Source: a virus
Taxonomy: Duplodnaviria > Caudoviricetes
Virus record (IMG/VR): IMGVR_UViG_3300031949_000040
Coordinates: 1 to 59,977 of that record
Length of the DNA: 59,977 nucleotides
Direction: 5' to 3' (one strand)
A program made the translations under genes and the position numbers. The notes beneath the pieces were generated by a model. The model had not been told where the DNA came from and did no database searches. It saw only the letters and a program-made list of their open reading frames with translations. Shown piece after piece: positions 1 to 37,805 of the stretch; within the stretch, counting starts at the first letter, position 1; each line of letters begins with the position of its first letter.

Positions 1-147
1 TCACCGAAATAGAAAAAACGTTGGCTTATTTCTGGACTTATGTAATGAACGATGGGGCGTGTGAATAGTGCCAGCATCTACCGTAACCGTCGCCCAAATA
101 TGCACCGCCATAGACGCCACGCTCGGCGCGGCTCTTGTCGCCTCCGG
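1..147. repeat. Terminal direct repeat, left copy (147 bp; circular assembly overlap)
   Basis: 1-147 equals 59831-59977 except C127 vs A59957. Confidence 0.95.
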
Positions 148-544
148 TGACCTGGTCGAGAGCCAAAACTATAACGAGCTAACCGAAGGAATGAACGATG
201 AAAAGGTGTTGCAGATTTACCCAGAGGAGCAAACGCCGGTCTCTGTTGGCTCCGGCGCCCAAAAACTAACCTTTGGCTCTACGCCGTTTATTGACGAAGA
301 GATTGTCATTCACGCCGATTACTACGGCCGCCAGCGGTCACACATTGGCGAGGATATGGCCCAACTTGTTAGCGGCATTGACGCGATCAGGGTCAATCTC
401 AAAACGCAGAATTGCCCTAATCCATTTGGGCTAACGGGCATTGCTAATTTTCAATGGTCATGGCGGCGCACGGTGTTTGAGTATGGCGGGCCGGAGCTTA
501 AGTATATTGGGGCAAGGTTTAGGTTGGTATTGAGGACGTTCTAA
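68..544 (+). CDS. Putative tail terminator/tail completion protein
   Basis: 158 aa, GTG start; follows the HK97-gp10-like gene across the origin and precedes the major tail gene; positional inference. Confidence 0.6.
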   Translation: MPASTVTVAQICTAIDATLGAALVASGDLVESQNYNELTEGMNDEKVLQIYPEEQTPVSVGSGAQKLTFGSTPFIDEEIVIHADYYGRQRSHIGEDMAQLVSGIDAIRVNLKTQNCPNPFGLTGIANFQWSWRRTVFEYGGPELKYIGARFRLVLRTF

Positions 545-1014
545 TGAATGAAGAAATAAAAACACTGGTAACTATTATCAATCATCGTGCTCAAGTTGCG
601 GCCCGGCTTCGAGAATTGGCGCAACAACTAGAGAAGCGGGCAAACCTACACGACTTATCAAAGTTCAAACTCGATGAGCTTGATGGGTACGTCAAGCTAA
701 ATGTTTCCCGTAGGTTTCCGGGTGAGTCTCCCATTCCGTATGATTCGCCAGAGTACAAAGCAATACTCGAAAGCAATAAAAGCCCTCTTGAGCTTCATTT
801 TGCCAGAAATAGGCATCATCCCGAATTTCACACCAATGGCGTTAGCGACATGGCGCTCATTGATTTTATTGAAATGGTAGTTGACTGGCTTGCTGCTACT
901 GAGGCTTACGGCACTCCATTTAGGCAAGGTCTGGAAAAGCAAACGGGTTTGTATAACCTGCAACCAGACCACCTATACCTAATTGACTTAATAGCACGGC
1001 ACTTTGGAGAGTAG
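544..1014 (+). CDS. DUF5662-like HD-type phage protein
   Basis: HDLSKF, HFARNRHHPE and EMVVDW motifs typical of this family. Confidence 0.6.
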   Translation: MNEEIKTLVTIINHRAQVAARLRELAQQLEKRANLHDLSKFKLDELDGYVKLNVSRRFPGESPIPYDSPEYKAILESNKSPLELHFARNRHHPEFHTNGVSDMALIDFIEMVVDWLAATEAYGTPFRQGLEKQTGLYNLQPDHLYLIDLIARHFGE

Positions 1015-1016
1015 CT

Positions 1017-1355
1017 ATGTATCGAATGGTCAGACACACCCCGCTCTCCAGCGGTCACAAATACGGCGACATTATCAGGGATGGCGAGCTATCACCCGCC
1101 ACAATTCAAAAGTTTCTGGCGAGTGGGACGTTGGTTCGCGTCTCTACGCCGCCGCTATCCGAACTGCCCCAATGGGAGAAACGGCCCGAGCTGGCTGCGC
1201 TGGCTCGGGCGAATGTCATTACTATAGAGGACTTAATTCGCGCCAACGAAACCGAACTGGCAAAGGCGATCAGAAAATCAGTACGCACCATCCGGCAATG
1301 GAAAGACGAGGTAATGGTATGGCTAAATCCTGAACCACCTAAAGAAAACGGCTGA
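1017..1355 (+). CDS. Hypothetical protein with C-terminal helix-hairpin-helix-like segment
   Basis: ANVITIEDLIRANETELAKAIRKS pattern; in the late operon. Confidence 0.45.
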   Translation: MYRMVRHTPLSSGHKYGDIIRDGELSPATIQKFLASGTLVRVSTPPLSELPQWEKRPELAALARANVITIEDLIRANETELAKAIRKSVRTIRQWKDEVMVWLNPEPPKENG

Positions 1356-1403
1356 GATTAAATTAACTAAGTTTCTTGTATAGAAATATGGAGGTTTTAA
1401 GAA

Positions 1404-1865
1404 ATGGCACAAACAACAGGAGCAGTTGCTCAAGCCTGCGGCAAGGTCTGGATCAGTACCGATGGGACGAGCTTTACCGATGTCAGCGGCGCAACCCAGA
1501 GCATTACACCGGGCGAGCAAACTAAAATCACCGGCGAAGCATATACCTTCGACGGTGAGACGCCTATTGTCAAGGGCGGCAAGCGCGAACCGATGGAGTC
1601 GGAAGTCGTCATTATTTATACCGAAACAGACGCCGAAGTGTATCAGGTTACACGAGCCATCTTTGAGGCAACGGGTTGCGGCGCGGCGTTTTACATTCGC
1701 TATAGCCCACGCGGGGGCAATGCCGATGATGAGCAGTTGACCAGCGGCGCGGGGACGCTGACATCGTTCACCTATCCACCAGCAGACGCCAGCGCCGGTG
1801 GGCCAATCCTGGGCGGCTTCACTGTGCGGCATCCTGGATTTACTACCACAATCATTGCGTCATAA
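1404..1865 (+). CDS. Major tail (tube) protein
   Basis: 153 aa, Thr/Gly-rich, GGAGG RBS; directly upstream of the frameshifted chaperone pair. Confidence 0.75.
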   Translation: MAQTTGAVAQACGKVWISTDGTSFTDVSGATQSITPGEQTKITGEAYTFDGETPIVKGGKREPMESEVVIIYTETDAEVYQVTRAIFEATGCGAAFYIRYSPRGGNADDEQLTSGAGTLTSFTYPPADASAGGPILGGFTVRHPGFTTTIIAS

Positions 1866-1873
1866 GGTGAGCT

Positions 1874-2167
1874 ATGAGCAAGAATGAATTACCTGGAAAG
1901 GGCAATGGGGCCACAGCCCCGACTGTAACCATTGAACTGGATATGGACAACTTCACCTGGGGCGATTTGGAGGATATTGAGAGCCAGTCACCGACGAAGG
2001 TCCGGCAAGCAATGCAAAAATTCGCAAGCATTGAAGGTGTAGCCAAAGAGGAAATGAGCGAATATCTGCGTCGGCTGTCCCTGCGCCAGATGAAGGAAAT
2101 CAGCGCCGAATTTATGAAGGCAATCCAAAGCCTGAGTAATCCAACGGGCGCGAACCAAAAAAACTAG
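1874..2167 (+). CDS. Tail assembly chaperone (G-like)
   Basis: Follows the major tail gene; ends CAA AAA AAC TAG with slippery A AAA AAC. Confidence 0.8.
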   Translation: MSKNELPGKGNGATAPTVTIELDMDNFTWGDLEDIESQSPTKVRQAMQKFASIEGVAKEEMSEYLRRLSLRQMKEISAEFMKAIQSLSNPTGANQKN

Positions 2168-2370
2168 AGATGCGCTTGGCCGAGTATTTAGGCGCAAAAA
2201 CAGGCCAAGCGCCTGGTGAGTACCTGAAATTTTATTTGCGAAGGTTGTACGGTTGCACTCCAAGCGAACTTGCAGAACAAAAAGGCGAGTTTTTCTTTGA
2301 GATGCTTTGCGATCTGAAGTGTGAATCCTGGGAGCGCCGCACCGCCCATTTCCGCCAATCGCTTCATTAA
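2158..2370 (+). CDS. Tail assembly chaperone T segment (-1 frameshift extension, GT-like)
   Basis: The -1 frame is open from the slippery site through the ATG at 2170 to the stop at 2370; contains YGCTPSEL. Confidence 0.75.
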   Translation, partial: KKLEMRLAEYLGAKTGQAPGEYLKFYLRRLYGCTPSELAEQKGEFFFEMLCDLKCESWERRTAHFRQSLH

Positions 2371-2373
2371 TTA

Positions 2374-2391
2374 CCGCCATTGCCCTGGCGT
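2374..2391. repeat. Left arm of an 18-bp perfect inverted repeat bounding the RAMP/array cassette
   Basis: CCGCCATTGCCCTGGCGT is the reverse complement of 4546-4563. Confidence 0.85.
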
Positions 2392-2392
2392 A

Positions 2393-2430
2393 GTTAAAAA
2401 GAGGGGCACTTGATAGTGCCCCTCTTTAAC
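2393..2430 (-). terminator. Intrinsic terminator ending array 1 (possibly bidirectional)
   Basis: Stem AAAGAGGGGCACT/AGTGCCCCTCTTT with a 4-nt loop; T-run on the minus strand. Confidence 0.8.
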
Positions 2431-2560
2431 CTTGCCTTGCCCTGCCAGACCTTACCTAACCCGACCAAACCTAACCTCACCGGACCGGACCGGACCTCAC
2501 CCCACCACACCCGACCGTACCCCACCAGACCTAACCTCACCGCACCCTTACCACAAGGTT
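2429..2560 (-). ncRNA. GGY-NN pentamer array 1 (putative VIPR-type guide RNA)
   Basis: On the minus strand: leader TAACCTTGTGGTAAGGGT, then 23 exact NN-GGY units (25 GGY in total), then the terminator; starts at the HNH stop codon. Confidence 0.85.
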
Positions 2561-2825
2561 ATTTCATAAATGCGTGTCTGTTTTTATGGCAATCGTGACA
2601 CAAGGTCTTTAAGTTGCTTGGGTGGTTCGTTCCACCTTCGCTTAGTTCAAGCACATGATGACAATGGGTTTTTTCATAGGCGAATTGAGTAAAGCAATAC
2701 TGACAAATGCCCAAGTCTCTTTGGTAGACCCACTGCTTAAGCGGTTTCCAAATGTCATCAGGGAGCCGGGAATACCATAAAGCCCTTAATCCTGGGAGTT
2801 CTGCAACAGAAAAATACTTGCTCAA
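2559..2825 (-). CDS. Small HNH endonuclease
   Basis: RD..CQYC, CHHVLELSEGGTNHPSNLKTLCHDCH. Confidence 0.9.
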   Translation of the reverse strand: MSKYFSVAELPGLRALWYSRLPDDIWKPLKQWVYQRDLGICQYCFTQFAYEKTHCHHVLELSEGGTNHPSNLKTLCHDCHKNRHAFMK

Positions 2826-3403
2826 ATCTTGCAGACCTCAAACTTAGTGACCATAAACCGGCCAAACTTGGGGCGAAAGTCTCCAATGCCAGAGGTACGA
2901 CCAGCCAGAATCAAGACCTCATTAACCACGTTGGCGGGTATCTGGTCATCCAAAACGGTAATCTCAAAGTCCAGTTTCCACCCTGGCTTAAAGCAAGGCC
3001 GAATCCGCACCACTCGCGCACGCTGAACAACGGCGGGCCTGACATCCAAGTAAAGCGGCTTATCAGCGTCAGCGTCAAGATCATCAGGGGCTTTGATACC
3101 GTGCAAGATTTCATCAGGGCTACAAAAGACATTACCCTTAAACAATTGGGCGTAGGTCTTACCTCTAGCGCCCTGGATTTTGTAGCCAGCCGATGCCTTG
3201 ACCATTGCCCCATCAAAATGGATGGCGGGTTGATAAACTTCGCCGTCGGGATTGATGTAAAGATGCTCTCTCCATTCCTGGCTGTAGTCCTTTTCACCTG
3301 TCCTTTTCTTGCCGCCTTTGCTCAAGTCGGCAAAATCAGGTAGTGGGTACTTGTGTTGCAACAGTGGGGCAACACCTGCGACCGAACAATTAACAGTGTA
3401 CAT
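2822..3403 (-). CDS. Stand-alone RAMP/Cas7-like RNA-binding protein (putative Vipr)
   Basis: N-terminal GVAPLLQH, VYQPAIHFDGAM, RIRPCF..W.LDF.I and a C-terminal Gly-rich loop AGRTSGIGDFRPKFGRF; adjacent to the GGY-NN arrays. Confidence 0.75.
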   Translation of the reverse strand: MYTVNCSVAGVAPLLQHKYPLPDFADLSKGGKKRTGEKDYSQEWREHLYINPDGEVYQPAIHFDGAMVKASAGYKIQGARGKTYAQLFKGNVFCSPDEILHGIKAPDDLDADADKPLYLDVRPAVVQRARVVRIRPCFKPGWKLDFEITVLDDQIPANVVNEVLILAGRTSGIGDFRPKFGRFMVTKFEVCKI

Positions 3404-3435
3404 AATTCTTTTCCTTTCTAATTTGAAATTGGGTT

Positions 3436-3465
3436 AAAGGGGAGCAAGGCGCTCCCCTTTTTTTA
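3436..3465. terminator. Hairpin between the accessory ORFs and the RAMP gene
   Basis: AAAGGGGAGC/GCTCCCCTTT stem; T-run on the plus strand. Confidence 0.6.
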
Positions 3466-3717
3466 TTCGCCGCTTTCTGACCGATCCCAAGCCTCACTAG
3501 CCGTGGCTTCAAAGTCGGACAGGTCGGCTTCGGGTTGGATCAGTTCTTGAAGTATCTCTTTAGTCGCCAACAGATGCGTCTTGGCCGCCACACGGTCAAC
3601 CCGACAAGCGCCAATGTAAAAGACTGAAAGCATTTGCCGGTTGTCGGCAATGTGGGTCAAAAAAGCCTCATACTCCAATTCGTCAAAGGCAAGACTAACA
3701 GTGTAGGTGGCGGCCAT
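3463..3717 (-). CDS. Hypothetical acidic protein (cassette accessory)
   Basis: 84 aa; start overlaps the upstream stop. Confidence 0.65.
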   Translation of the reverse strand: MAATYTVSLAFDELEYEAFLTHIADNRQMLSVFYIGACRVDRVAAKTHLLATKEILQELIQPEADLSDFEATASEAWDRSESGE

Positions 3718-4010
3718 TAAAGCACCTCCAGGACACCGACAAATTCACCACTGGCGTTAATGAGGATGCTTTGAGAGGCGTAGTTAAAGCCCTTGCGCGG
3801 CAAGCTAGCGGAGCGGCTTTTGCTAACTTTGATTTCTTGCCGCTTGGCAATCGGTTGGGCCATCGAGCGGAGCTTTGATTCTTGCTTGGGGGTTAGGCGC
3901 TCATAAGGGAATGAGCGCTCTTTGCCGCTGCGGGTGGTCACGAGGACGCGGCCAATCATCAATCGGACGTTGCTAATAAAACGGGTCTGTGGTAATCTAC
4001 ACTTAGCCAT
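3717..4010 (-). CDS. Hypothetical basic protein (cassette accessory)
   Basis: 97 aa; AAAGGTGAG RBS; first gene after the leftward promoter. Confidence 0.65.
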   Translation of the reverse strand: MAKCRLPQTRFISNVRLMIGRVLVTTRSGKERSFPYERLTPKQESKLRSMAQPIAKRQEIKVSKSRSASLPRKGFNYASQSILINASGEFVGVLEVL

Positions 4011-4090
4011 TGGAGAAACTCACCTTTCTTTGATGGTTAGAGCCGTTCGATTGTTTCCGCAATCGGGCGGCTCGTTTGATTTATGACTAC

Positions 4091-4119
4091 AGTATACCAT
4101 ACTTATATTTACCAGTCAA
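4091..4119 (-). promoter_or_regulatory. Sigma70-type promoter for the RAMP/HNH/array 1 operon
   Basis: TTGACT-17 bp-TATACT with an extended TG. Confidence 0.8.
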
Positions 4120-4162
4120 TACTACTAACCTTAAAATATTATAAATATGTCTTGGTATGTAC

Positions 4163-4192
4163 TTGACAAGACCGACGCACTTGGTTTATAAT
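4163..4192 (+). promoter_or_regulatory. Sigma70-type promoter for the RHH gene and array 2 (leaderless)
   Basis: TTGACA-18 bp-TATAAT; ATG 6 bp downstream at 4199. Confidence 0.8.
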
Positions 4193-4198
4193 GGGTAT

Positions 4199-4366
4199 AT
4201 GAAAACCGAAGTTAAAGACGTCCAAGAAAAATACACGTCCTATACTTTCAAAGCGCCTAGCGATTTGCTTGCCAGGGTTAAAGATAAAGCGGGCTTGATT
4301 CCAGTGAGTGCCATTATCCGGCGCTTGTTGGAAAAATGGCTTGCTGGCGAAGTAAACCTCGATTGA
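4199..4366 (+). CDS. Ribbon-helix-helix (Arc/CopG-like) regulator
   Basis: YTFKAPSDLLARVK...VSAIIRRLLEKWL. Confidence 0.75.
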   Translation: MKTEVKDVQEKYTSYTFKAPSDLLARVKDKAGLIPVSAIIRRLLEKWLAGEVNLD

Positions 4367-4467
4367 TAACCTTTGTGGTAAGGGTATGGTAAGGGTTTGG
4401 AGGGGCGTGGTTTGGCTAGGTCAGGTGTGGTTTGGAGGGGCGTGGTATGGTTCGGTATGGCAAGGAC
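4367..4467 (+). ncRNA. GGY-NN pentamer array 2 (putative VIPR-type guide RNA)
   Basis: Leader TAACCTTTGTGGTAAGGGT shared with array 1; 18 GG(T/C/A) units at 5-nt (twice 6-nt) spacing; starts at the RHH stop. Confidence 0.8.
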
Positions 4468-4504
4468 GTAAAGAGCTATCTTTCGGGGTAGCTCTTTACT
4501 TTTT
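4468..4504 (+). terminator. Intrinsic terminator ending array 2
   Basis: GTAAAGAGCTATC/GGTAGCTCTTTAC stem followed by TTTTT. Confidence 0.85.
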
Positions 4505-4545
4505 GAGCGTTCCTGATACAATTAACATAACTCAATAAGCACGAA

Positions 4546-4606
4546 ACGCCAGGGCAATGGCGGGTGAAAGTTATTTTATGACTTTCACCCCCCATTGCCC
4601 TTTTTT
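4546..4606 (+). promoter_or_regulatory. Right arm of the 18-bp inverted repeat, overlapping a terminator/attenuator-like hairpin upstream of the tape-measure gene
   Basis: AGGGCAATGGCGGGTGAAAGT pairs with ACTTTCACCCCCCATTGCCCT, followed by a T-run. Confidence 0.65.
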
Positions 4607-4655
4607 GTTCCGGGCGGGTGATGGTCACATCACCCGTTTTTTATTTGGGGCAGGT

Positions 4656-7600
4656 ATGAGCAACGTAATTGAAATTGTCATAAAGCAATCTTCCAGCGGC
4701 AACGCCATTCACGACGCCTCTAAAGCTCTTGGCGGCCTTTCCGGTGCAGCCGGCGGTGCTATCGGCAGCCTCGGTAAATTCGGCGGCGCTCTGGGCAATA
4801 TGGCGACGATTGCTGGCGGCATTGTGGCCGCCAACCTCTTCGGCAAAATCGCCGAGGGTATTTCGAGCTTTGTCACCACGGGCCTGAACGCCGTTGGCAG
4901 CAGCCAGCAGCTTGAAACATCGCTCAAGTCACTGCTCACTGCCAATAATATGTATGAGCAGTCTACCGAGACGGTGACGCAGGCTGTGACCAATCAAATA
5001 ATGTCACAGGATGAATATGGGCAAAAGCTCGACGAGCTTAACGCCAAGCTCGTGACCCAGCGAGCGACCTATCAGGAACAGCAGGAGCGCATCCGGCAGC
5101 TTACCGAGCAATACGGTGAAAATGGCCTGGTGGTCATCAAAAACAAGGCGCAACACGAACAACTGGCGATTGCCATTCGAGGGACAGAGCAGGACATAGC
5201 CAGCCTTGCTACAACCGAAACCAAGCTCAGTACCAGTACTGAAACGGCCTGGCATCAGGTAATGAGCCAAACCGAGGCAATGAAGATTGCCAAAAAGGAA
5301 ACGGCGAATTTGCTTGAGTTTGTTTCAAGACTTGCGGTTGTTTCCCCCTTCGAAACTGAAGATGTCGAGATGACCACCAAGTACGCAGTGGCTGCTGGCC
5401 TGGGTCTGGACCAGACTAAGCAGTTTGTACCAGCCTTTCTCGATTTGGCGGCTTCGGTGGGCATCACGTCCGACTCGCTGGGCTTCGCTGCCGACCAACT
5501 CTTTCAGGTTCGCAAAATCGGTAAGTTGACTGAAATAGACTTACGCCAGTTACGACGGCTGGGTATTGACCTGGGCAAGATCATCGGCGTTGAAATGGGA
5601 ATGAGCGTCTCGGAATTTAACGAAAAGGCCGGGGAAAGCCCTGAGATCTTTGATGAGCTTTTTGATGCCGTTACCCGCTTTTCGGCCAACACATTCGCCG
5701 GCACATCGAAGGAAATGGCACTGTCGGTCAAGGGGCTACAGTCTACCATCTCGGATGTGTTCGTTATCGGCTCACGCACGTTTTTGCGTCCACTCGTCGA
5801 TGCCTTTACGCCGGCCATTGCGGGCATAGTCGGCAAGCTGAGTGATTTCGTTTTGGGCGGTGAGATGAAGAGCCTGGGCGATGATATGGCTAAAACCCTG
5901 ATGGGTGGAATTGCCAAATTCCAAAAGAGCGGCGCGGGCGGCCTGTTTGCCTCGTTGGGTTTCGAGGGCGGGGCGCTGTTTTTCAAGAAACTGTCCAAGC
6001 TAATGACTATGATAACCGGCGACGCTGGCACATTGGCAGGCACTATCAAGGGGGTTTTGGGCGGGGCATTTGGATGGTTGCAATCAAATATGTTCCCTAT
6101 CCTGTCTAAGGGTATCCAATTTGTCATTGATGGCTTTCAGACTTTTCGAGGCGTATTGCTTGATGTGGGTACTGTTGTGGGGGATGTCGTTAAAAAAGTA
6201 ACGGGTGCTTTTGAGCGGTTTGGCTTTAGAGGTGCGGCGATTAGCATACTGGGCCAATTGGGATTAGAGCCAAGCCAAATTGCCACCGTACTACAGACTA
6301 TGGATCAGATGGTATCTAATGTTACTGGCGCCATTGACAAAATAACGGGTGCTTTTGATAGATTTGGGGTCAGAGGGGCAGCGGTTAGCATACTGGGGAT
6401 ACTAGGTTTAGAGCCAGAAACTATTGCCACGGTCCTGTCTATTACTGACCAAATAGTATCCTTTGTATCATCCTTTGTTTCTCAGGTTGGCGGCTTTCTT
6501 GGCTCTTTATCATTCGATGAAATTATTGGAGCATTTACGGGAATAGGAATTGCTGTGGGGGCAATTGTAGCTAGTGGCATACTCACTGCTTTAGTTGCTG
6601 GCTTAATGTCTCTACTCACACCAATTAACCTTATCATTGTCGGAGCAGCTTTACTAGGTGCAGCATGGGCCGGGAATTGGGGCGGCATTCAGGATAAATT
6701 CTTTGCGGCCTGGGCCGTTATTCAACCGGCCTTGCAAGAACTTTGGAACTGGCTAGGAATTAACATCCCTATAGCCATTCAGACCGCCAGCGACTTTTGG
6801 ACGAACACGCTCTGGCCCGCCTTGCAACAGGTAGGCGCTTTTATTGTTGGGACGGTCATCCCGGCGATGGTGGGTTTATGGCAATGGTTGTCAGTTAATG
6901 TCCCAATGGCTGTCCAGACCTTGAGTGATATTTGGACGAATACCCTACTCCCCGGCTTTCAACGGGTCTGGGAAGCCATACAAACCAACCTCTTGCCACT
7001 TTTTCAACAACTGTTTACCTGGCTTGCCAGCGAGGGGCCGGGAATAGCCCAAGTTCTAGGGGATGCCTGGACTAATATCATCTTACCCGCTCTTGCCGCC
7101 GTTGGTGATTTTCTGCTCAATACTCTTTTCCCGGCGTGGGTTGAGCTTCAAGTCTGGCTGGCTGAGAATATCCCGGTAGCCATTCAAATACTTTCGGACA
7201 TCTGGACGAACACCCTATTACCGGCGATTACAAATGCCGGAACCTTTATCACCGGCACACTCATACCAACCTTGACCAATCTATGGACGTGGCTGAGTAC
7301 AAACATCGTTTCGGCCATTCAAACCGTCTCGGATATATGGACTACGATTTTTATGCCAGCCATTACAGGTGTGTGGACTTTTATCAGCACACTCGTAATT
7401 CCGCTGTTTCAATCCTTAACGAACCTGATGGGCGCAGTGCTGGTTGTGGCCCTAACTGCCCTGGCAGGCCTGTGGCAAAATGTTTTATTACCGGCCATTG
7501 AGGTTGTCTCAAATTTTATCGGCGCAACTCTTACCGTTGCGCTTAACGCACTGATTGCCTTGGTTGCCCAAAGACTCGGACCGACGATCAGGGTTTTTGC

Positions 7601-8984
7601 CGCAATCTGGCAGAGTGTACTTTTGCCTGGGCTTACTGCTGTAGGCAACATTGTTAAATCCGTGGTTGCTCCAGGTCTTGAGGATGTAGGAAAAAAGGCT
7701 GGTGTAATAGGTCCGATTTTGCAGGTTCTTGCCGATGTTGCTCTAAAGGCCGTTGCGAGTGGGTTTGATGCCATAGCCGGTGCTATTAAATCAGCAACGA
7801 ATTTATTTAATACTTTGGCTGATGCGGTCAAGAATTTTAAGTTACCCGCCGTACTTCAACCCGGCTCACCTCCGCCATTTGCCGTGGCCCTACAGGACAT
7901 AGCTAATGCGGCTGGCATGGCTGCTAATGCTATGGGCGGTTTTAGCCAGGCTACGATAGATAAACTGCTAGGTGTCAACCGTGCCATAGCCTCTAATCGC
8001 AATACTATCGGCGCGGCTCGTGATGACCTTGAGAAATTCTTTGACAAGTCAAATATCGGCGGCGTCAAAGGTAATTTTGCCTTAGTTCATCTGTCAAAGA
8101 TATTCAAAGAGCACAGCGCCGAAATCCTGACGGCAACGGATAGGGCAGCCAAGTTTAGGGAGATTGTCAGTCGAGTTGGGCCAAATTGGGAAAAGGCCAT
8201 GATTAGCGGCGAACAGTGGAAGACAGTTAATGCGGGCATCGGCCTGTTCATCAATTTCTTTGATAAGCGCAAAAAAGAGTTGATCCTGGCGCAGCAGCAG
8301 ATGTTTGTTCAGGCTGGTAAAACGGCGCTGAGTATCGGGATGAGGCTGAACGACATCGTGCAAGCCAGCGTAGACGTGCTTGATATGCGGGTAGAAACCT
8401 TGCAAGGGCTGGTTTCGTCCGGGATGGCCGAGGTCAACTTTCAGGGGATGATACTATCCCAGGCGCAGGCGCAGGAGCTGCTTAACGCGGCTTTAGCTGA
8501 GCAACTTGACATTCAAGACGATATTTTCCAACTTAAACAGAACGAGCAAAAGTTGGGCTTCCTGGAAAAGCAGCTTGATTTGATTGATACGCTGAACGCA
8601 GCCGGGTTGAATGTGCAAGATATTTTGGGCGGCATAACGCTAGGGCTTGACGCTTCCATTCCTGATATGATAGAGGCTACAAATCGGCTGGTTATGGCGA
8701 TGATCGAGCAGGTGAATAAAGATTTGCAGCTTGGTTCGCCATCGAAGCTGATGTTCAAAAAGTTTCAATTGGCCGGTATGGGGGCGGTCCAGGGCTTGCT
8801 ATCAATGAAGCCGATGCTGGAGAAGGCTATCGGGCCGGTGATTGACCCGTTGATGTCGGCGGGGAATGGGGCGGTGTCCAACCGCACAACTAACAACTAC
8901 TTTTCGCAGACAGTCAACACGCGAGCCGAAAGCTCGACAGTGATTGGCGATTTCAGAACGATGCAGATGCTGCTAGGGGCGTAG
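4656..8984 (+). CDS. Tail tape measure protein
   Basis: ~1440 aa; SPFE tape-measure motif and Trp-periodic helical repeats; start moved to MSNVIEIVI (the ORF track gives 4557). Confidence 0.92.
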   Translation: MSNVIEIVIKQSSSGNAIHDASKALGGLSGAAGGAIGSLGKFGGALGNMATIAGGIVAANLFGKIAEGISSFVTTGLNAVGSSQQLETSLKSLLTANNMYEQSTETVTQAVTNQIMSQDEYGQKLDELNAKLVTQRATYQEQQERIRQLTEQYGENGLVVIKNKAQHEQLAIAIRGTEQDIASLATTETKLSTSTETAWHQVMSQTEAMKIAKKETANLLEFVSRLAVVSPFETEDVEMTTKYAVAAGLGLDQTKQFVPAFLDLAASVGITSDSLGFAADQLFQVRKIGKLTEIDLRQLRRLGIDLGKIIGVEMGMSVSEFNEKAGESPEIFDELFDAVTRFSANTFAGTSKEMALSVKGLQSTISDVFVIGSRTFLRPLVDAFTPAIAGIVGKLSDFVLGGEMKSLGDDMAKTLMGGIAKFQKSGAGGLFASLGFEGGALFFKKLSKLMTMITGDAGTLAGTIKGVLGGAFGWLQSNMFPILSKGIQFVIDGFQTFRGVLLDVGTVVGDVVKKVTGAFERFGFRGAAISILGQLGLEPSQIATVLQTMDQMVSNVTGAIDKITGAFDRFGVRGAAVSILGILGLEPETIATVLSITDQIVSFVSSFVSQVGGFLGSLSFDEIIGAFTGIGIAVGAIVASGILTALVAGLMSLLTPINLIIVGAALLGAAWAGNWGGIQDKFFAAWAVIQPALQELWNWLGINIPIAIQTASDFWTNTLWPALQQVGAFIVGTVIPAMVGLWQWLSVNVPMAVQTLSDIWTNTLLPGFQRVWEAIQTNLLPLFQQLFTWLASEGPGIAQVLGDAWTNIILPALAAVGDFLLNTLFPAWVELQVWLAENIPVAIQILSDIWTNTLLPAITNAGTFITGTLIPTLTNLWTWLSTNIVSAIQTVSDIWTTIFMPAITGVWTFISTLVIPLFQSLTNLMGAVLVVALTALAGLWQNVLLPAIEVVSNFIGATLTVALNALIALVAQRLGPTIRVFAAIWQSVLLPGLTAVGNIVKSVVAPGLEDVGKKAGVIGPILQVLADVALKAVASGFDAIAGAIKSATNLFNTLADAVKNFKLPAVLQPGSPPPFAVALQDIANAAGMAANAMGGFSQATIDKLLGVNRAIASNRNTIGAARDDLEKFFDKSNIGGVKGNFALVHLSKIFKEHSAEILTATDRAAKFREIVSRVGPNWEKAMISGEQWKTVNAGIGLFINFFDKRKKELILAQQQMFVQAGKTALSIGMRLNDIVQASVDVLDMRVETLQGLVSSGMAEVNFQGMILSQAQAQELLNAALAEQLDIQDDIFQLKQNEQKLGFLEKQLDLIDTLNAAGLNVQDILGGITLGLDASIPDMIEATNRLVMAMIEQVNKDLQLGSPSKLMFKKFQLAGMGAVQGLLSMKPMLEKAIGPVIDPLMSAGNGAVSNRTTNNYFSQTVNTRAESSTVIGDFRTMQMLLGA

Positions 8985-11534
8985 ATGTGGAAAAGAATAC
9001 CTGTCATCCTGTTACTTTGGCTACTCTACCTTCCAGGCACTTTGTCCGCAATCCCCGTCACGGCCCAAGAGCCAAGCTTCAAAGTTTACCTTCCGTTAAT
9101 CTATTCAATCGACGATCCTTGTAGTGAGCCGATAATGTCAGACTGGAAAATTGTTGTACCCGAAAGCACCCTAAATCGCTGTCTCAACCCTTCCGCCGAA
9201 ACAACGGGGAATTTTGCGGCATTGGCTGGGACTACGGTTACACGGGTCACGAGTTTTCAGAATTATGGATTGAATAGCTATCGAGTGGAAACCAATGCCG
9301 ATAACGAGGGGGAAACATTCGACCTTTCGGCTTTAGCTAACGCCATTCACTATGTCACCGTGCGGGTGACGGGCACATTGCCCGCCTCGTGGGATTGGTC
9401 ACTCGATAATGCCACGTACACAAGCCCCACCTTACTAGAGGCCATTGATGGCACCTGGTCACTCTACGGTCTACAAGTTCCGGCGGCCCAAGCTAACGGC
9501 TCGGTATTGCTATACATTCGCCAGAACGGCTCCGGCTCCGGCGATTTCTACCTTGACGGTATCCAGGTAGAGGAAAAGAGCTATTACACAACCTACTGCG
9601 ACGGCACGCAGCCGGGCTGTGAGTGGAACGGGCCGGAACACGCCTCGACCAGCCAGCGCAGCGCCAGCAGCCGGGCGGGCGGTAGAGTGCAGGATTTACA
9701 GGATGATTATTACCTCAACATCGGCGGCATGATTGGCACGGGCGCATCACCGCAAACTCTGGGGCTGGATAGCTACGCCCTTTTACCGGGGGGCGAACTC
9801 AATAATATCAAAGTGGGTAGTCGGGTGTTCACCTTGACCGGCGTCATCACCGGTACCAGCCAAAGCGATTTTCACAGCAAAAAGCAGACGCTGCTTAGTG
9901 CTTTGATTGGTGGCTTGCAGCCGGTGCGGTTGCGCTACAACGGCGCTACCGTTCACAAGGAGATAGCCGCACATTATGAGGGTGGATTAGAGGGTGAGCT
10001 ATCCGCTTCGGATCCGTGCGCGTGGGAGCGAGTGGCCGTGCGCTTCCTTGCACCAAATCCCTACTGGTCAGAGATAGGCGAGAGCGCGGCGGCTTTGGAT
10101 ACGAATGATAGCGCCACGTTCACAGTAGTGGCGGCCAGGCTCAGAAGCACGGGGCAGTGGTCGGCGCTGGGGCCACCTAGTGCAAGTGGGACGTATACGG
10201 CGGTTAATGCCCTGGCCGAGGATGCAACTTATATCTACATCGGCGGTAATTTCCTTAACTTCGATAATATTGCGGCGGCTGATAGGATTGTTAGATACAA
10301 CAAGCAAACCGGCGTTTACTCAGCTATGGGAACGGGCACGAACGGGATTGTTCATGCGCTTGCCGTTGGGCCAGATGGCTCAGTGTACGCCGGTGGGTTT
10401 TTTACAGCAGCCGGGGGGGTAGCCAATACCGCTTATATTGCCAGGTGGGACGGTAGCGCCTGGAACGCACTAGGTACGGGGATGGATTTCACAGTTAACA
10501 ATCTTATCTTTGGCTTAGATGGCACACTCTATGCCGGAGGCGACTTCACTTTGGCCGGGGGGGTAGCCAATACCGTAAGGATTGCGGCCTGGAGCGGCAC
10601 AGCCTGGTCCGCGTTAAGCACTGGGGCGAATGGGATTGTTCGGGCTTTTGCCGTCGGGTTAGACGGCACGCTTTACGCAGCCGGGGCATTTACGACAATC
10701 GGCGGTGTGTCTGCCAACCGCATAGCCTCATGGAATGGGACGGCTTTCACCGCCCTGTCTAGTGGCTCAAGCGTTTCTATATTCGCTCTTGCTATCGACC
10801 CAGCCGGGCTACTGTACGTGGGTGGTTCATTTACGACAATTGGCAGCGTAGCGGCCAATCGTGTCGCATCCTGGAATGGTAGCACGTTTAACGCTTTGGG
10901 AGACGGGGCAAATACTGGCGTTGTTTCCGATATAGTTATTGGAGCGGATGGTACGCTCTACGCTGGGGGTACCTTTACAACAGCCGGGGGTATCACTTTA
11001 GCCGATAGGGTAGCACGTTGGAACGGTTATGCCTGGGCACATTTAGACATTGATTTACCAGGAAGTCCCGACATAACTGCTATCCTTGCCAGCAAATACG
11101 TTGACCCAGTAGTCGAGCAACAGTATTCACTATATCTCGGCTTTGACACCACCGGCGCCGGCACATTCGCCGGAAAGACCACCGTCGTCAATGACGGTAC
11201 TGCTCCCGCTTTCCCCAAAGTCATCTATGAGCGCAGCGGCGGCACGACCGCCATAATTGAGACGCTTAAAAATGAGACAGCGGGGTTGGAACTGCTATTC
11301 AATTATTCGCTTCTGAGCGGCGAACGATTGACGATTGACCTGACGCCAACCCAAAAGAGCATTGTCAGCAGCTTCTTTGGACAAAGACAGGATGCGATTT
11401 TGCCTAACAGTGATTTTGGCGAATGGTCATTGGCGCGGGGCAGTAGTGATGTGACTTCGTTTGTGGGGACAAGCGGTAGTCCGACGGTGACGGCCTATTT
11501 GTTGTGGAAAGATAACTACACCAGCCACGATTAA
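8985..11534 (+). CDS. Distal tail/baseplate protein with carbohydrate-binding-like N-terminus and beta-propeller insertion
   Basis: Follows the tape measure; FLAPNPYW Dit-like motif; repeated LYAGGxFTxAGG..IAxWxG blades; alternative start at 9135. Confidence 0.7.
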   Translation: MWKRIPVILLLWLLYLPGTLSAIPVTAQEPSFKVYLPLIYSIDDPCSEPIMSDWKIVVPESTLNRCLNPSAETTGNFAALAGTTVTRVTSFQNYGLNSYRVETNADNEGETFDLSALANAIHYVTVRVTGTLPASWDWSLDNATYTSPTLLEAIDGTWSLYGLQVPAAQANGSVLLYIRQNGSGSGDFYLDGIQVEEKSYYTTYCDGTQPGCEWNGPEHASTSQRSASSRAGGRVQDLQDDYYLNIGGMIGTGASPQTLGLDSYALLPGGELNNIKVGSRVFTLTGVITGTSQSDFHSKKQTLLSALIGGLQPVRLRYNGATVHKEIAAHYEGGLEGELSASDPCAWERVAVRFLAPNPYWSEIGESAAALDTNDSATFTVVAARLRSTGQWSALGPPSASGTYTAVNALAEDATYIYIGGNFLNFDNIAAADRIVRYNKQTGVYSAMGTGTNGIVHALAVGPDGSVYAGGFFTAAGGVANTAYIARWDGSAWNALGTGMDFTVNNLIFGLDGTLYAGGDFTLAGGVANTVRIAAWSGTAWSALSTGANGIVRAFAVGLDGTLYAAGAFTTIGGVSANRIASWNGTAFTALSSGSSVSIFALAIDPAGLLYVGGSFTTIGSVAANRVASWNGSTFNALGDGANTGVVSDIVIGADGTLYAGGTFTTAGGITLADRVARWNGYAWAHLDIDLPGSPDITAILASKYVDPVVEQQYSLYLGFDTTGAGTFAGKTTVVNDGTAPAFPKVIYERSGGTTAIIETLKNETAGLELLFNYSLLSGERLTIDLTPTQKSIVSSFFGQRQDAILPNSDFGEWSLARGSSDVTSFVGTSGSPTVTAYLLWKDNYTSHD

Positions 11535-11537
11535 GCT

Positions 11538-12731
11538 ATGTCCAAGAAGATTGCCCTATTCACCACATTTTTTGAGGCCGACAGCGGCTATTCCCTGATC
11601 ACCGTAGCTGAAACCCAAATCAGGATGCTGCTAGATCACGGCTATGAGCCAATTGTCCTGGTAGATGAGCGTTTCAAAAGCGACAAGGCGCTGTGGCAGC
11701 CGACTACCATAGATGTACGGCCGGTCATTCCTCCTCTTGGCGCGCCAGCCAATTCAATCCTGATAGCCCTGCACGAACACCTCGCCAACGTAGACGTGTG
11801 CATCACTCACGACATCGTTTTGTTGAATGATTACAAGGCACACGACCTGGCTATGAGGGAATACGCCAAATCGAGGGACAATCTGCTATGGTTGCACTGG
11901 CTTCATTCCTGCCCCAGCGGGCAGCGCGAAACACCACCCGGCTATCTCATCTATCCGAACGCCAGCGATAAGCCGCGAGTATGCCAGGTGTACGGCCTGT
12001 CCGGGCAGGAGCACCGGGTTGTACCTTGCCGGGCGGCGCACTCGATAGACCCGCTCAGCGTGTGGAACTATGACGCACTGACCCGCAGCCTGATAGGTAA
12101 ATTCAATTTGCTCGATGCGGAGGTGAGTGCGGTTTACCCAGTACGATTGGACCGCGGGAAACAGGTAGAGAAGGTCATTCGTCTATTGGCTGGGGGCAAG
12201 CGGGCGGGCTATGCGGTCAAGCTGCTGGTTATTGATTGGCAATCTACCGGGGCGCATTTCCAGAAGTACATTGACGAATTGATTGAACTGGCCTGGACGT
12301 TGGGAGTGGGTAACGATGTGGCCTTTACCAGCCGGTTGGATGATAGATGTAGTCAGGGTGTGCCACGGCACGTGGTTACTGAGCTGATGGACCTTAGTTC
12401 AATTTATATACATCCAAGCCGGGTTGAGACATACAGCTTGGTTGTGCACGAGGCGCTCTTGAGGGGTAAGTTGGTCTGTCTCAATCACGATTTCCCGGCT
12501 TTTCGGGAATTGTTTGGAGAGGCAGGCATCTACTTCGATTTCGGCTCAGATAGATTTGAGCGCACCTATGAGCCTGATATTCAATCATTTTTCGATGACG
12601 AAGCCCATAGATTGATTGCTGAATTGCGGCAAAACCGGGCGCTGATGGCTCAGACGAAGGCGCGGCGGGAGTGGGGGCCGGAGGTAATGTGGCGAGAATT
12701 TGAGCAACTATTTCACTTGAAACCTTGCTAA
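11538..12731 (+). CDS. Glycosyltransferase, GT-B (GT4-like)
   Basis: RLDRGK and YIHPSRVETYSLVVHEA motifs. Confidence 0.85.
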   Translation: MSKKIALFTTFFEADSGYSLITVAETQIRMLLDHGYEPIVLVDERFKSDKALWQPTTIDVRPVIPPLGAPANSILIALHEHLANVDVCITHDIVLLNDYKAHDLAMREYAKSRDNLLWLHWLHSCPSGQRETPPGYLIYPNASDKPRVCQVYGLSGQEHRVVPCRAAHSIDPLSVWNYDALTRSLIGKFNLLDAEVSAVYPVRLDRGKQVEKVIRLLAGGKRAGYAVKLLVIDWQSTGAHFQKYIDELIELAWTLGVGNDVAFTSRLDDRCSQGVPRHVVTELMDLSSIYIHPSRVETYSLVVHEALLRGKLVCLNHDFPAFRELFGEAGIYFDFGSDRFERTYEPDIQSFFDDEAHRLIAELRQNRALMAQTKARREWGPEVMWREFEQLFHLKPC

Positions 12732-12756
12732 TAAAAAAGCCCCGGTTAGGGGGCTT
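12732..12756 (-). terminator. Terminator between convergent genes
   Basis: AAAAAAGCCCC-GGTTAG-GGGGCTT. Confidence 0.65.
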
Positions 12757-12760
12757 GAAA

Positions 12761-13048
12761 CTACTCTGATTTAGGTCTGCCAGGATGCGGGCCAGGGCGC
12801 GGCCCGCCTCGTTTTACCATCTCGCCATGCCGCGCCCGGCGCAAAGCCTTGGCAATATTGCGCTTGGCGGTTTCGCGGTGGCAGCCGGCTTGCTCGACTA
12901 CGGCGGTATACATTTTTTGTAATTGCTGCCATCTCTCATCTGGCGTGGTCATCAGGCTATCAAACCAGACGCACCCGCCTGCGGCCTCCAAAACGGAGGC
13001 CGCAGTATTGAATATTTGTTCAGAGCGCTCTTTGGTGTTATTTGACAT
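12761..13048 (-). CDS. Hypothetical protein (moron)
   Basis: C-terminal RGGPRPGPHPGRPK; start chosen at MSNNTK. Confidence 0.6.
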   Translation of the reverse strand: MSNNTKERSEQIFNTAASVLEAAGGCVWFDSLMTTPDERWQQLQKMYTAVVEQAGCHRETAKRNIAKALRRARHGEMVKRGGPRPGPHPGRPKSE

Positions 13049-13052
13049 AGGA

Positions 13053-13283
13053 TTATTTCCAGGGTTCATCACCCCAAGGATTGCGGTTCAGGTACTTTTC
13101 GGCTTCAGTCTGAGTATTGAAGGGTAGGCCAATTGATTTAATACCGGCCCAGGTGAATCTGGCAAACTCCAGGCCCTGATGAATTTGACCATTTTTGTCA
13201 TTCATATAGGCGTAAAATTTACCGGCAATTTCTGCGACCTCACGGCCCATTGCGCCTTCGTAAACTATCTTTTCGTTAGACAT
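13053..13283 (-). CDS. Hypothetical protein (moron)
   Basis: 76 aa; tightly spaced in a leftward operon. Confidence 0.65.
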   Translation of the reverse strand: MSNEKIVYEGAMGREVAEIAGKFYAYMNDKNGQIHQGLEFARFTWAGIKSIGLPFNTQTEAEKYLNRNPWGDEPWK

Positions 13284-13284
13284 G

Positions 13285-13536
13285 TTAACCCTTTAGCAAA
13301 CCCTTTCTCATTCCAACTCTGCGGCTTGTGTCAAGGTCGTTGGCGAATTGATTAAAAATAAATTCCGGGCGGGCCATTTTTCGGGTGTTCATTTCGTTGG
13401 TATGTTCGGCCAGTTTTTCAGCTATGATTTCTCGGTAGGTTTTACCGTCACTGCGGGCTGAATCAATCGGGAATTGCTCTGATAAATCGGTCGCCATTTG
13501 GGTCATTTTTTCAATCAGTTCAGTTTTATTAGACAT
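13285..13536 (-). CDS. Hypothetical protein (moron)
   Basis: 83 aa; AAAGGG RBS after a consensus promoter. Confidence 0.65.
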   Translation of the reverse strand: MSNKTELIEKMTQMATDLSEQFPIDSARSDGKTYREIIAEKLAEHTNEMNTRKMARPEFIFNQFANDLDTSRRVGMRKGLLKG

Positions 13537-13580
13537 TTTTTAACCCTTTCGTTAATTGAGTAACTTGAATTTGTATCTAT

Positions 13581-13609
13581 ATTATATATCAAACAGTTTG
13601 AATTGTCAA
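13581..13609 (-). promoter_or_regulatory. Consensus sigma70 promoter for the three-gene moron
   Basis: TTGACA-17 bp-TATAAT. Confidence 0.85.
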
Positions 13610-13662
13610 TACCGTTCTTTACATAATTCAGACAAGTCACCAAAGTTTTAAGGTTCAATAGC

Positions 13663-14757
13663 GTGTTAATTAAGGCAATCATCTCCACTTTCGACAACCT
13701 GCCCATGCTCAAGCAGCAGCTAACCACCCTCAGAAATGACCCTCTCATCTCTGAAATCATTGTAGTCGAAAATGACTGCGAGGACGGCACGGACGAATGG
13801 CTTAGAACCCAAACCGGCCTAACCGTTGTCAACGTCCCCCAAAACCGAGGCGCAAGCATAGCCCGTAACGCTGGCCTGGATGCGGCTGGTAAATTCGACT
13901 ATGCGTTGATGCTCGACGGCGGCATAGGCGTTTTGCAGGGTGGCACTCAGAAAATGCTTGACTATATGGAACGCCGGCGCGACGAAGTGCCTGGCGAAGT
14001 GGCCCAACGAGGCCAAAGGTATTGTGACGTGCTGGGGCTAGAGATTGCCGATATGGTCACTGACCCGGAGAAAGCGTGGCGGCGCTGGCCCGGTGAAATC
14101 AAAGACAGTGACACATATCGAAACACCCGACTGTCTCACACGGCCTATTGCCTCGCCCGGTGGCGAGCCTTCGACGGTATCAGGTTTTGCACAGAGGGGC
14201 CATTTGGTGAGGCAGGGTATGCTGTCGAGGACGATCAGCTTGCATATATCTGGCACGACCTGAGCATTGTCGTTCACGTTGTCACCAACATTCACCCCTA
14301 CCGGCGCATTAACGGTTCGTTTGGCCGCCTGTTTCGAGAGACAGGTATCTGGCCTAACGGCTACGGCTCCGTCTACGAAAAGCGACTTTGCTTTCTACAG
14401 CAAAACTACGCCAAGCATCAGCCCGGCGTTCAGTGGGGCGAAGCGCCGCCGGAACGAACGGTCATCATTGACGTGGCAGACCTGGAAACCACGATCGAGC
14501 TCATTAAATTCTGGCACGACGAATTTAGGAAAGATAGATTTGAAGCGCCTTACTCATACGCCTGGAAACCATACCGCATCGAAGTGCGCTGCCCTGCTGA
14601 GCGGATTGATTTTTTGGAATGGGCAGAGCCACGGCGACTGAGGCAGCATCATGGGGATACGATTATTGAGAGCGGGGAAATTGTCCGACGCAACTCGAGT
14701 AACGAGGCGCTATGGACGGGGGACTTTATTTTGGAGATAACGATTGGCCTGGAGTGA
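13663..14757 (+). CDS. Glycosyltransferase, GT-A (GT2-like)
   Basis: IIVVENDCEDGT, NRGASIARNAG, LMLDGG. Confidence 0.85.
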   Translation: MLIKAIISTFDNLPMLKQQLTTLRNDPLISEIIVVENDCEDGTDEWLRTQTGLTVVNVPQNRGASIARNAGLDAAGKFDYALMLDGGIGVLQGGTQKMLDYMERRRDEVPGEVAQRGQRYCDVLGLEIADMVTDPEKAWRRWPGEIKDSDTYRNTRLSHTAYCLARWRAFDGIRFCTEGPFGEAGYAVEDDQLAYIWHDLSIVVHVVTNIHPYRRINGSFGRLFRETGIWPNGYGSVYEKRLCFLQQNYAKHQPGVQWGEAPPERTVIIDVADLETTIELIKFWHDEFRKDRFEAPYSYAWKPYRIEVRCPAERIDFLEWAEPRRLRQHHGDTIIESGEIVRRNSSNEALWTGDFILEITIGLE

Positions 14758-35077: not shown

Positions 35078-35089
35078 GGAACTCGCCCA

Positions 35090-37743: not shown

Positions 37744-37805
37744 GCATCGGGGCGTATTTTTTACCAAACCATACTATTCCAAAAGAAGCGTTCGGAGGTG
37801 ACAAA

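Follow-up and report, generated by a model that had tools for sequence, protein, structure and literature searches.

We analysed a 59,977-base stretch of viral DNA (Duplodnaviria; Caudoviricetes), hereafter the window, which is the whole of IMG/VR virus record IMGVR_UViG_3300031949_000040 (completeness estimate 81%) and belongs to a temperate, siphovirus-like phage. Between the genes for the tail assembly chaperone and the tape measure protein, the window carries a cassette of 2.15 kb that is mostly antisense to the tail genes. The cassette contains five open reading frames (ORFs): vipr, which encodes a RAMP protein of 193 aa, a gene for an 88-aa HNH nuclease, and three small ORFs of unknown family. 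On the minus strand the order is two small ORFs, vipr, HNH, a 14-nt leader, 23 YNNGG pentamers and a hairpin terminator; the plus-strand part comprises a 69-aa ORF, a duplicate of the leader, 14 pentamers and a terminator-like hairpin (Table 1). The HNH nuclease proved to be an obligate companion in this clade of Vipr proteins.

Identification of the cassette as a VIPR system

By its sequence, the system in the window is a phage-borne VIPR (Viral Interference Programmable Repeat), a kind that has already been described, in bioRxiv preprints of 2026. As presented in the text of the VIPR preprint (10.64898/2026.04.26.720920), Vipr is a minimal RAMP of ~20 kDa with a single RRM and a glycine-rich loop, and the guide RNA (vrRNA) consists of 9–16 YNNGG repeats, whose NN dinucleotides pair with double-stranded DNA (dsDNA) while one base, usually the codon wobble base, is skipped. 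The same text describes VIPR systems as mostly phage-borne and as targeting competing elements, and divides them into seven types with accessory genes vap1-6 (10.64898/2026.04.26.720920). We counted as a VIPR array any tandem run of at least four YNNGG (GGY/NN) units beside vipr. The window has the RAMP fold, homology to Vipr and YNNGG arrays (of 23 and 14 units), and guide matches in its clade follow the one-base skip.

The 193-aa Vipr of the window has neither a Pfam family nor a PADLOC match. Its AlphaFold2 model (pLDDT 90.6) was compared with solved structures using Foldseek, and the best PDB matches were Cas7-type subunits of type VII and type III complexes (8z4l_F, E = 1.2e-7, TM 0.59). 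Residues G168, G172, P178, G181 and F183 are invariant in 56 Vipr homologs. The profile of the window Vipr family matches a published vipr, that of Escherichia phage SUSP1 at 28492–29061 (−), at E = 1.8e-26 over model positions 1–188 of 192; that gene is coding sequence agp039 of SUSP1, annotated as hypothetical. An earlier note on this DNA, made from the letters alone, had called the gene upstream of HNH a RAMP and the period-5 tract a guide array, and both calls hold, given the Cas7-like fold, the SUSP1 match and the 23 in-phase YNNGG units. By analogy, the 193-aa protein would be an RNA-binding filament subunit. Its family counts 319 proteins at E ≤ 0.001 in a 90%-clustered collection, none of them named, and 2,252 representatives at the same threshold in a 50%-clustered library.

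The HNH gene and its product

The HNH gene begins with a TTG codon (2825–2823) that overlaps the TGA stop (2824–2822) of the 193-aa ORF as TTGA, and a GAGG is located 9 nt upstream of this start. The TTG start is credible because the N-terminus of the product aligns with homologs from the first residues. The TAA stop (2561–2559) runs directly into the 14-nt leader. This is the arrangement that the earlier note had described, an 88-aa HNH gene between the RAMP gene and its array, overlapping the stop of the one and abutting the leader of the other. It had also seen no obvious separate DNA-binding domain, and we likewise found no domain other than HNH in the 88-aa protein, residues 1–40 of which match no separate DNA-binding domain. 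In SUSP1, 3 nt separate the end of vipr from vap1, and a 530-nt intergenic array comes next; the place of HNH between vipr and array is therefore the canonical vap slot.

Sequence comparisons identify the 88-aa ORF as a true HNH nuclease. Pfam HNH (PF01844) matches residues 41–85 with E = 1.9e-10 (41.1 bits, against a cut-off of 21.4), HNH_5 matches with E = 1.3e-7, and 32 PHROG HNH families match the ORF. An alignment of 33 homologs, all 84–88 aa long, revealed that C41, C44, H54, H56, H57, N67, N71, H80 and H84 are invariant, and that both CxxC zinc pairs and the catalytic H/N/H residues are invariant or at least 90% conserved. The N-terminal part is specific to the family, with F5, W17, R20 and W26 invariant in the 33 homologs. 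The HNH profile matches solved DNA-cutting HNH domains, those of McrA (1.2e-6), a group II intron maturase (1.3e-6) and Cas9 (3.6e-5), and also IscB.

Linkage of HNH to one clade of Vipr

Of 167 loci fetched, 20 were set aside because another locus contained their vipr DNA, which left 147 unique vipr genes. These were classed by phmmer bits per aligned residue, such that the close clade corresponds to at least ~52% identity to the window Vipr. HNH was counted as present where a homolog (E < 1e-10) lay on the same strand and started between −60 and +1300 nt from the vipr end, and all loci scored as lacking HNH have at least 1 kb after vipr. In the close clade (n = 52 loci), 39 loci had an HNH homolog, two had none (L017, L045), and 11 ended too soon to decide. 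In the two more distant Vipr classes, a homolog of this HNH was present downstream of vipr in 0 of 77 decidable loci. Co-occurrence of HNH with RAMP homologs had been proposed as a check in the earlier note; far from being rarely linked, the two occur together in 39 of the 41 decidable close-clade loci.

The genes around the cassettes vary by locus: L001 has portal and head genes there, L002 a recombinase, and L095, L022 and L033 tail genes. Across these unrelated genomic contexts, HNH invariably shares its strand and its transcription unit with vipr. The usual order is vipr, arrays, HNH, often with one further vrRNA behind, and the window order of vipr, HNH and array recurs in L008. Vipr, HNH and array recur together in dozens of independent loci, a three-part association that is far beyond chance. 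We concluded that this Vipr clade has in HNH a dedicated partner and no passenger. Besides the window, IMG/VR virus records G001 and G002–G013 carry such cassettes, which lie among tail, portal or integrase genes and often antisense in tail-gene operons. L095 belongs to the 60-kb record G001, which is related to the window phage (23 blastn segments, 64–82% identity). No enrichment in cellular defence islands was found, the close clade being absent from the six genome_contigs loci (best L162, 48% identical and without HNH).

These observations bear on two other accounts of the HNH gene. The first is that HNH is an independent selfish passenger, a free-standing homing endonuclease beside a VIPR that only silences. 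Phages commonly carry small HNH genes, the window itself has a second one (209 aa, 24046–24675 (−)), and the nearest annotated phage relatives of the cassette HNH (31–42% identity) are ordinary phage HNH genes. We nevertheless regard a passenger as highly improbable in view of the near-constant linkage to vipr on one strand and in one transcription unit across unrelated contexts, the length of only 84–88 aa without a DNA-recognition domain, and the occupation of the SUSP1 vap1 slot. The second account is that HNH is a terminase-associated packaging nuclease, as in cos phages with an HNH protein of ~100 aa. One PHROG match is indeed annotated as terminase small subunit, and the best GenBank phage matches (phi1026b gp82, phiE125 gp70 and SfV orf53) lie at genome ends, where such genes sit. 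In the window, however, ~41 kb separate HNH from the gene for the terminase large subunit, and the cassette around HNH is antisense; HNH also accompanies vipr in contexts that are unrelated, and its place in G001 differs from that in the related window phage. A role in packaging is thus barely credible. The terminase-associated HNH proteins of the HK97 gp74 type (~100 aa) are the closest annotated phage relatives by sequence and are comparable in being minimal, in lacking a DNA-binding domain and, as is proposed here for the window HNH, in owing their choice of site to a partner, whereas the window HNH is linked to vipr and away from terminase.

Guide arrays

The conserved leader, or 'handle', that precedes the left guide tract also follows the HNH stop in L095 and the stop of the ribbon-helix-helix-like (RHH-like) 69-aa ORF, at window 4367–4395. 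Across the clade, a TTG[TC]GG motif opens 51 of 101 in-phase runs, and the first base of the unit is a pyrimidine in 1246 of 1381 units (90%). The hairpin behind the left tract, which has T-runs on both strands, is likely, judging from the sequence, to terminate both the vrRNA and the chaperone gene. None of the RNA runs listed contains this stretch. SUSP1 also has one vrRNA upstream of vipr, though not behind a small gene of its own. Very long arrays flank vipr on both sides in the metagenome loci L049 and L048, with up to 9 in-phase runs upstream in L049, compared with 1–5 elsewhere. A search of window positions 1–6000 against Rfam (E-value mode) returned only sub-threshold, miRNA-like matches on hairpins and none at gathering level. 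CRISPR-Cas was considered and rejected: there is no repeat-spacer array near the cassette, only the period-5 tracts.

Most close-clade loci have 2–5 tandem vrRNA units, with the same leader ahead of each. Such units need to be separated, and HNH could therefore serve the biogenesis of vrRNA or the making of new guides, for example by cutting multi-unit transcripts at the leader. Hammerhead ribozymes carry out this separation in other VIPR types, according to the preprint text (10.64898/2026.04.26.720920). On the other side, HNH domains of this type, judging from the profile matches, are DNases, the vrRNAs of the window are single units that end in terminators and HNH is kept all the same, and type II arrays are processed without a nuclease gene. 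We rate this explanation, like that of the passenger, at only a small fraction of the total probability.

Guide code and targets

The 52 loci that carry HNH, among them the window and duplicate loci, yielded 101 unique in-phase arrays on decoding. When these arrays were compared with all loci fetched at that stage plus the window, requiring at least 19/20 matches per 10-unit sub-window, a skip of one base gave 11 matches and skips of zero and two bases gave none. All 11 matches came from a single guide (L033) and lay on the antisense strand of the vipr genes of other cassettes. This 12-unit guide (2325–2384; also present in L037 and L038) matches perfectly in its first 10 units in 5 loci; it reaches at least 19/24 on 8 of 54 unique close-clade vipr genes, and 15/24 on its own vipr. 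On these sequence matches, the guide looks like one for cassette-against-cassette targeting. Best-match fractions over full guide length reached at least 0.8 in 5 of 97 guides at skip 1, compared with 2 and 2 in the controls; they barely separate skip 1 from the controls, so that only sub-window and long-guide matches are informative.

The earlier note had decoded the target of the left guide as the allele next to the insertion site, and the matches we obtained agree with this. Nowhere in the window does a site match the left guide at skip 1 better than the one in the chaperone gene given in Table 1 (26/46, first N on codon position 1). This score is not above that of shuffled guides (mean 25.5, maximum 29), and so only the position and the codon phase of the match are telling. 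In all of G001, the best match is the homologous chaperone site, which scores 30/46 (100 shuffles, maximum 29). A run from a freshwater-sediment metagenome of another study (X2) contains a contig that tracks the window to base 2187 and then diverges; by hand count, its variant allele matches the left guide at 17/20 NN bases over the 10 units that its 30 visible letters cover, where the window allele matches at 10/20. No contig of this run bridges the cassette site. From these sequences, a correspondence of the left guide to alleles of the flanking chaperone gene is credible because of the G001 site, the X2 allele and the flank-matching guide that G001 has of its own (see below).

Searches for a closer target were negative. 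For neither window guide did we find a full-guide target with at least 80% of NN bases matched. Exact IUPAC scans of IMG/VR gave 0 matches for left units 1–12, left units 11–21 and right units 1–11, and the full left pattern, with as many as 3 mismatches allowed, gave 0 matches in the record of the window itself. For the right guide, that of the second vrRNA, there was no target above shuffled controls in the window or in G001, and none in IMG/VR by exact pattern. Relatives of the window phage, sought by way of the major tail protein, were absent from IMG/VR viral contigs; in the protein collection, the chaperone T ORF retrieved no entry but its own, and GenBank phages yielded nothing by tblastn or blastn.

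We inspected by hand nine partial matches from scans of the guides against their own loci (±5 kb), namely those of L095, L022 (twice), L047, L033, L010, L031, L026 and the window. In 9 of 9, the first N fell on codon position 1 of an ORF that runs on the same strand; tape measure, tail fibre-like, minor tail and integrase genes are among these ORFs. We then compared clades, using guides of at least 12 units and a threshold of z ≥ 4 against 40 shuffles. Guides that reached this threshold numbered 5/40 at skip 1 in the HNH clade (skip 2 control, 0/40), 0/24 in the nuclease-free clade B (control, 0/24), and 1/73 in the nuclease-free clade C (control, 1/73).

A genome-wide scan of 14 virus records (genomes of 25–60 kb) found that 3 of 32 guides reached z ≥ 3.5, at 257, 612 and 2,888 nt from the cassette, and that no guide reached this value at skip 2. 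For 28 of the 32 guides there was no recognisable target in the own genome, either at z ≥ 3.5 or at the homologous flank site, and targeting of flank alleles is thus a feature of some guides only. Flank-directed guides are real but a minority. Scores between genomes were noisy, the skip-2 control reaching z 6.9, so that only the match of G001 to the window (z 11.4) stands on its score alone.

Cassette polymorphism in a related phage

G001 has no cassette between its chaperone and tape measure genes. Its own VIPR-HNH cassette is at a different site, also antisense, and the last vrRNA of this cassette ends 28 nt from the stop of a minor tail gene. The gene that flanks the G001 cassette is a homolog of the 849-aa minor tail gene of the window, after which the window has no cassette. 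A presence/absence polymorphism at a fixed site was thus found reciprocally, for two insertion sites, between the window and G001.

The terminal 22-unit guide of the G001 cassette matches, at skip 1, the window allele of this minor tail gene at 34/44 and its own allele at 31/44 (shuffle mean 25.1, maximum 28). In both alleles the site is in codon phase and 230–300 nt from the end of the gene. Taking the two phages together, the guide matches lie 168–257 nt from the cassette, and the other alleles score 30/46, 17/20 and 34/44 where those of the carriers score 26/46, 10/20 and 31/44; the margins are small. For the G001 guide, the own allele is nearly as close a match as the window allele, and discrimination of self from non-self is therefore undemonstrated.

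Window 11538–16500 (~5 kb of genes) has no nucleotide match in G001, which has its VIPR-HNH cassette there (35063–38100). By this comparison of sequences, the region beside the G001 cassette site appears to be a mosaic hot spot.

Other features of the window

Positions of the cassette features and of the main phage genes are listed in Table 1.

Table 1. Features of the cassette and of the phage genome in the window.
Feature	Position	Strand	Remarks
vipr, minimal single-domain RAMP, Cas7-like	2822–3403	−	PHROG_4652 (unknown function), E = 4.7e-20
HNH nuclease, 88 aa, vap slot	2559–2825	−	Pfam HNH and homolog alignment
vrRNA leader ('handle'), conserved, 14 nt	2545–2558	−	Directly after the HNH stop
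Left vrRNA guide tract, 23 YNNGG units	2430–2544	−	23/23 units end in GG, in phase
Hairpin with T-runs on both strands	2398–2427	.	Perfect 13-nt inverted repeat
Second vrRNA	4367–4465	+	Duplicated leader and 14 YNNGG-type units (4396–4465), then a terminator-like hairpin
Small overlapping ORFs, 97 aa and 84 aa	3717–4010 and 3463–3717	−	Within the cassette, upstream of vipr
69-aa ORF, weakly ribbon-helix-helix-like	4157–4366	+	Pfam RHH_1, E = 0.026, under the curated cut-off; divergent from the vipr operon
18-nt perfect inverted repeat, left arm	2374–2391	.	Brackets the entire cassette
18-nt perfect inverted repeat, right arm	4546–4563	.	Overlaps a strong hairpin (4551–4601), followed by a T-run, ahead of the tape measure gene
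Tail assembly chaperone	ORFs 1874–2167 and 2170–2370	+	The T part is ORF 2170–2370
Window's own, mismatched allele of the presumed target of the left guide	2179–2246	+	In chaperone T ORF 2170–2370, 168 nt from the cassette
Site matched by the G001 terminal guide	11238–11302	+	In the window's 849-aa minor tail gene
Tape measure	4656–8984		
Minor tail proteins			Also encoded in the window phage
Serine integrase	27504–29159		
Terminase large subunit	44174–45658		
Portal	45801–47291		
Major head protein	50176–51498		

The first chaperone ORF (1874–2167) closes in a run of seven A (window 2155–2170), and the next ORF is in the −1 frame. An A-run with a −1 frame is typical of the programmed frameshift of tail assembly chaperones. 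The presumed target of the left guide falls in the frameshifted (T) part of the chaperone.

The 18-nt repeat that brackets the cassette is present in two copies only in the window, one at each cassette border, and 0 of 100 shuffles gave two matches. None of the 209 fetched loci contains it. The inverted repeat may be the footprint of cassette entry, or the element's terminal repeat. In the cassettes of L095, L022, L033 and L047, the bracketing inverted repeats, short or imperfect, are close to the level of chance. Between the window and the empty site of G001, the intergenic DNA did not align and therefore gave no exact insertion borders.

The 97-aa and 84-aa ORFs have no Pfam, PHROG or PADLOC match, and no counterpart lies beside vipr in the other loci fetched at that stage; they could be cargo or additional accessory genes. 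The second, larger HNH gene of the window, mentioned above, matches phrog_589 (E = 4.6e-19), lies in the early region and is unrelated to the cassette.

Comparison with known systems

The window system shares with published type II systems (SUSP1, P. fulva prophage) a homologous Vipr, YNNGG vrRNAs beside vipr, carriage by phage, an accessory gene that follows vipr immediately and precedes the array, a 1-nt skip on the wobble base, and some guides aimed at other VIPR systems. It differs from SUSP1 in its accessory gene, HNH being unrelated to vap1 (hhalign probability 0.1%). Unlike type II, for which a 3' pseudoknot tail was published, it has a conserved leader ahead of the repeats, a feature known here from DNA alone; its guides run to 23 units, and some of them match alleles of flanking phage genes and not a satellite. 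A predicted nuclease as Vap protein is a trait shared with types III–V. The preprint text describes types III and V as enriched in defence islands and as serving host immunity (10.64898/2026.04.26.720920), whereas the cassettes considered here are in virus records.

An HNH accessory protein is already mentioned in that preprint, which names HNH domains among Vap proteins in the legend of Fig. S21 (10.64898/2026.04.26.720920), and the finding in the window is thus not new in kind. A companion preprint, which presents cryo-EM of the type II Vipr filament with a triplex R-loop, states that the role of the accessory nuclease 'remains unclear' (10.64898/2026.04.26.720927). The available text of the VIPR preprints does not contain the tight, clade-specific linkage of this 88-aa HNH, its location in phage late operons and not in defence islands, or the match of guides to flank alleles together with the reciprocal presence/absence in two related phages; the supplementary tables may differ. 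By term search of the available text, 'homing' does not occur in preprints 10.64898/2026.04.26.720920, 10.64898/2026.04.26.720927 and 10.64898/2026.10.15.759431; the last of these also has no occurrence of HNH, nuclease or cleav-, and 10.64898/2026.10.21.760802, searched in the same way, has none of HNH. A literature search for vrRNA and homing together found nothing.

Several systems outside VIPR offer parallels. The T-even Seg and Mob proteins are free-standing homing endonucleases ('intronless homing') whose site specificity is in the protein. As with Seg and Mob, a small nuclease gene lies here between conserved genes and is present or absent among relatives, and the site presumed to be targeted lies in the adjacent gene of the rival, some hundreds of bases from the insertion, with a mismatched allele in the carrier; in contrast to them, specificity would lie here in an RNA read by a RAMP filament. 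In the TnpB/IscB (OMEGA) systems of IS200/IS605 elements, an RNA-guided nuclease cuts the element-free site, which is repaired from the element-bearing copy. TnpB and IscB are single-protein effectors with contiguous guides and are tied to a transposase, whereas the system described here combines a RAMP filament of many subunits with an 88-aa HNH encoded separately, uses a gapped code and lacks a transposase. HNH-bearing Cascade variants exist among class 1 CRISPR effectors. With the backbones of class 1 CRISPR complexes (Cas7/Csm3/Cmr4), the window system has in common the Cas7-like fold, and the proposed filament on a guide RNA with a recruited nuclease; it differs in having no CRISPR array and no other Cas subunits, a period of 5 nt instead of 6 nt, and a single-domain RAMP.

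Discussion

The mechanism that we propose takes as its basis the identity of the parts, their linkage, the conserved catalytic residues and the correspondence of guides to flanks, and adds to them recruitment, cleavage and outcome as steps that we infer. From these sequences we consider it probable that the HNH in the vap slot is the effector of this Vipr clade, which would dock on the target-engaged filament and cut the DNA of rival phages. As in the published type II mechanism, Vipr protomers would polymerise on the vrRNA with each GGY hidden, and the NN dinucleotides would be presented to dsDNA with every third base skipped. HNH would be made from the same transcript as vipr, with translational coupling in the window. 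Having no DNA-binding domain of its own, the 88-aa protein would dock on the Vipr–vrRNA filament once this is on target, and would there nick or cut the DNA, such that silencing turns into destruction. The left guide would be addressed to the variant allele of the adjoining tail-chaperone gene, the phage's own allele being spared by its mismatches. Because the guide appears to be addressed to a variant flank allele, the likely targets would be closely related, co-infecting phages, and in a mixed infection the rival allele would be lost.

The recruitment step was put to a prediction of the Vipr–HNH complex, a check that the earlier note had suggested. The complex scored 0.57, compared with 0.00 for the best of 3 controls, the runs agreed in at least 88% of contacts, and the partner pLDDT was at least 86. 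Of 80 solved complexes, 58 reached the mark used for such predictions, as did 2 of 110 mismatched pairs; at scores of 0.60 or under, it was reached by only 7 of the 80 solved complexes and by both of the mismatched pairs that passed. The prediction thus lends weak support to recruitment as the earlier note pictured it.

A number of points weigh against HNH as the effector of a flank-directed system. The complex score is a weak pass, of a kind that errs in the majority of cases unless the interaction was already likely on other grounds. The score of the left guide on its own site, the negative target searches and the near-equal G001 alleles, all given above, belong here as well. Two close-clade loci (L017, L045) lack HNH, and the scan of the distant clades covered homologs of this HNH only, and only downstream of vipr. 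According to the preprint text, published type II VIPRs silence without any nuclease (10.64898/2026.04.26.720920). Finally, the case for HNH action in this Vipr clade is made entirely from sequence and prediction.

A different kind of nuclease action would be suicide-type exclusion, in which HNH is a non-specific DNase activated by the target. This would suit a minimal HNH with no specificity of its own; however, the phage carrying the system would be destroyed too, and the guide-to-flank pattern would have no role. We think it very unlikely, and return to an effector that cuts rival DNA at the guided site. A break made there would be a few hundred bases from the cassette, so that repair from the carrier genome would co-convert the cassette. 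It is conceivable, although we would put the chances somewhat below even, that the VIPR-HNH cassette is an RNA-guided phage homing element, in which the filament brings HNH to the rival flank allele and repair copies both the cassette and the protective allele. Under homing, the other guides, including those aimed at rival vipr genes, would act in the replacement of cassette by cassette. An alternative reading of the same observations is pure interference, in which selection against recombinants that target themselves would maintain the linkage of guide and protective allele.

The clade described here is compact and well populated, with a Vipr of ~193 aa and an HNH of ~88 aa, and it offers natural presence/absence alleles at two insertion sites. 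If a RAMP filament with a gapped guide recruits a stand-alone HNH, the pair would constitute a very small programmable nuclease. If the cassette is a homing element, it would be a nuclease drive whose address can be rewritten through RNA dinucleotides, and would be convergent with TnpB/IscB homing on a lineage of RAMP proteins related to CRISPR. Should RNA-guided homing or marker exclusion prove true, the origin of CRISPR-type machinery would be tied to selfish gene drive and to silencing between viruses.

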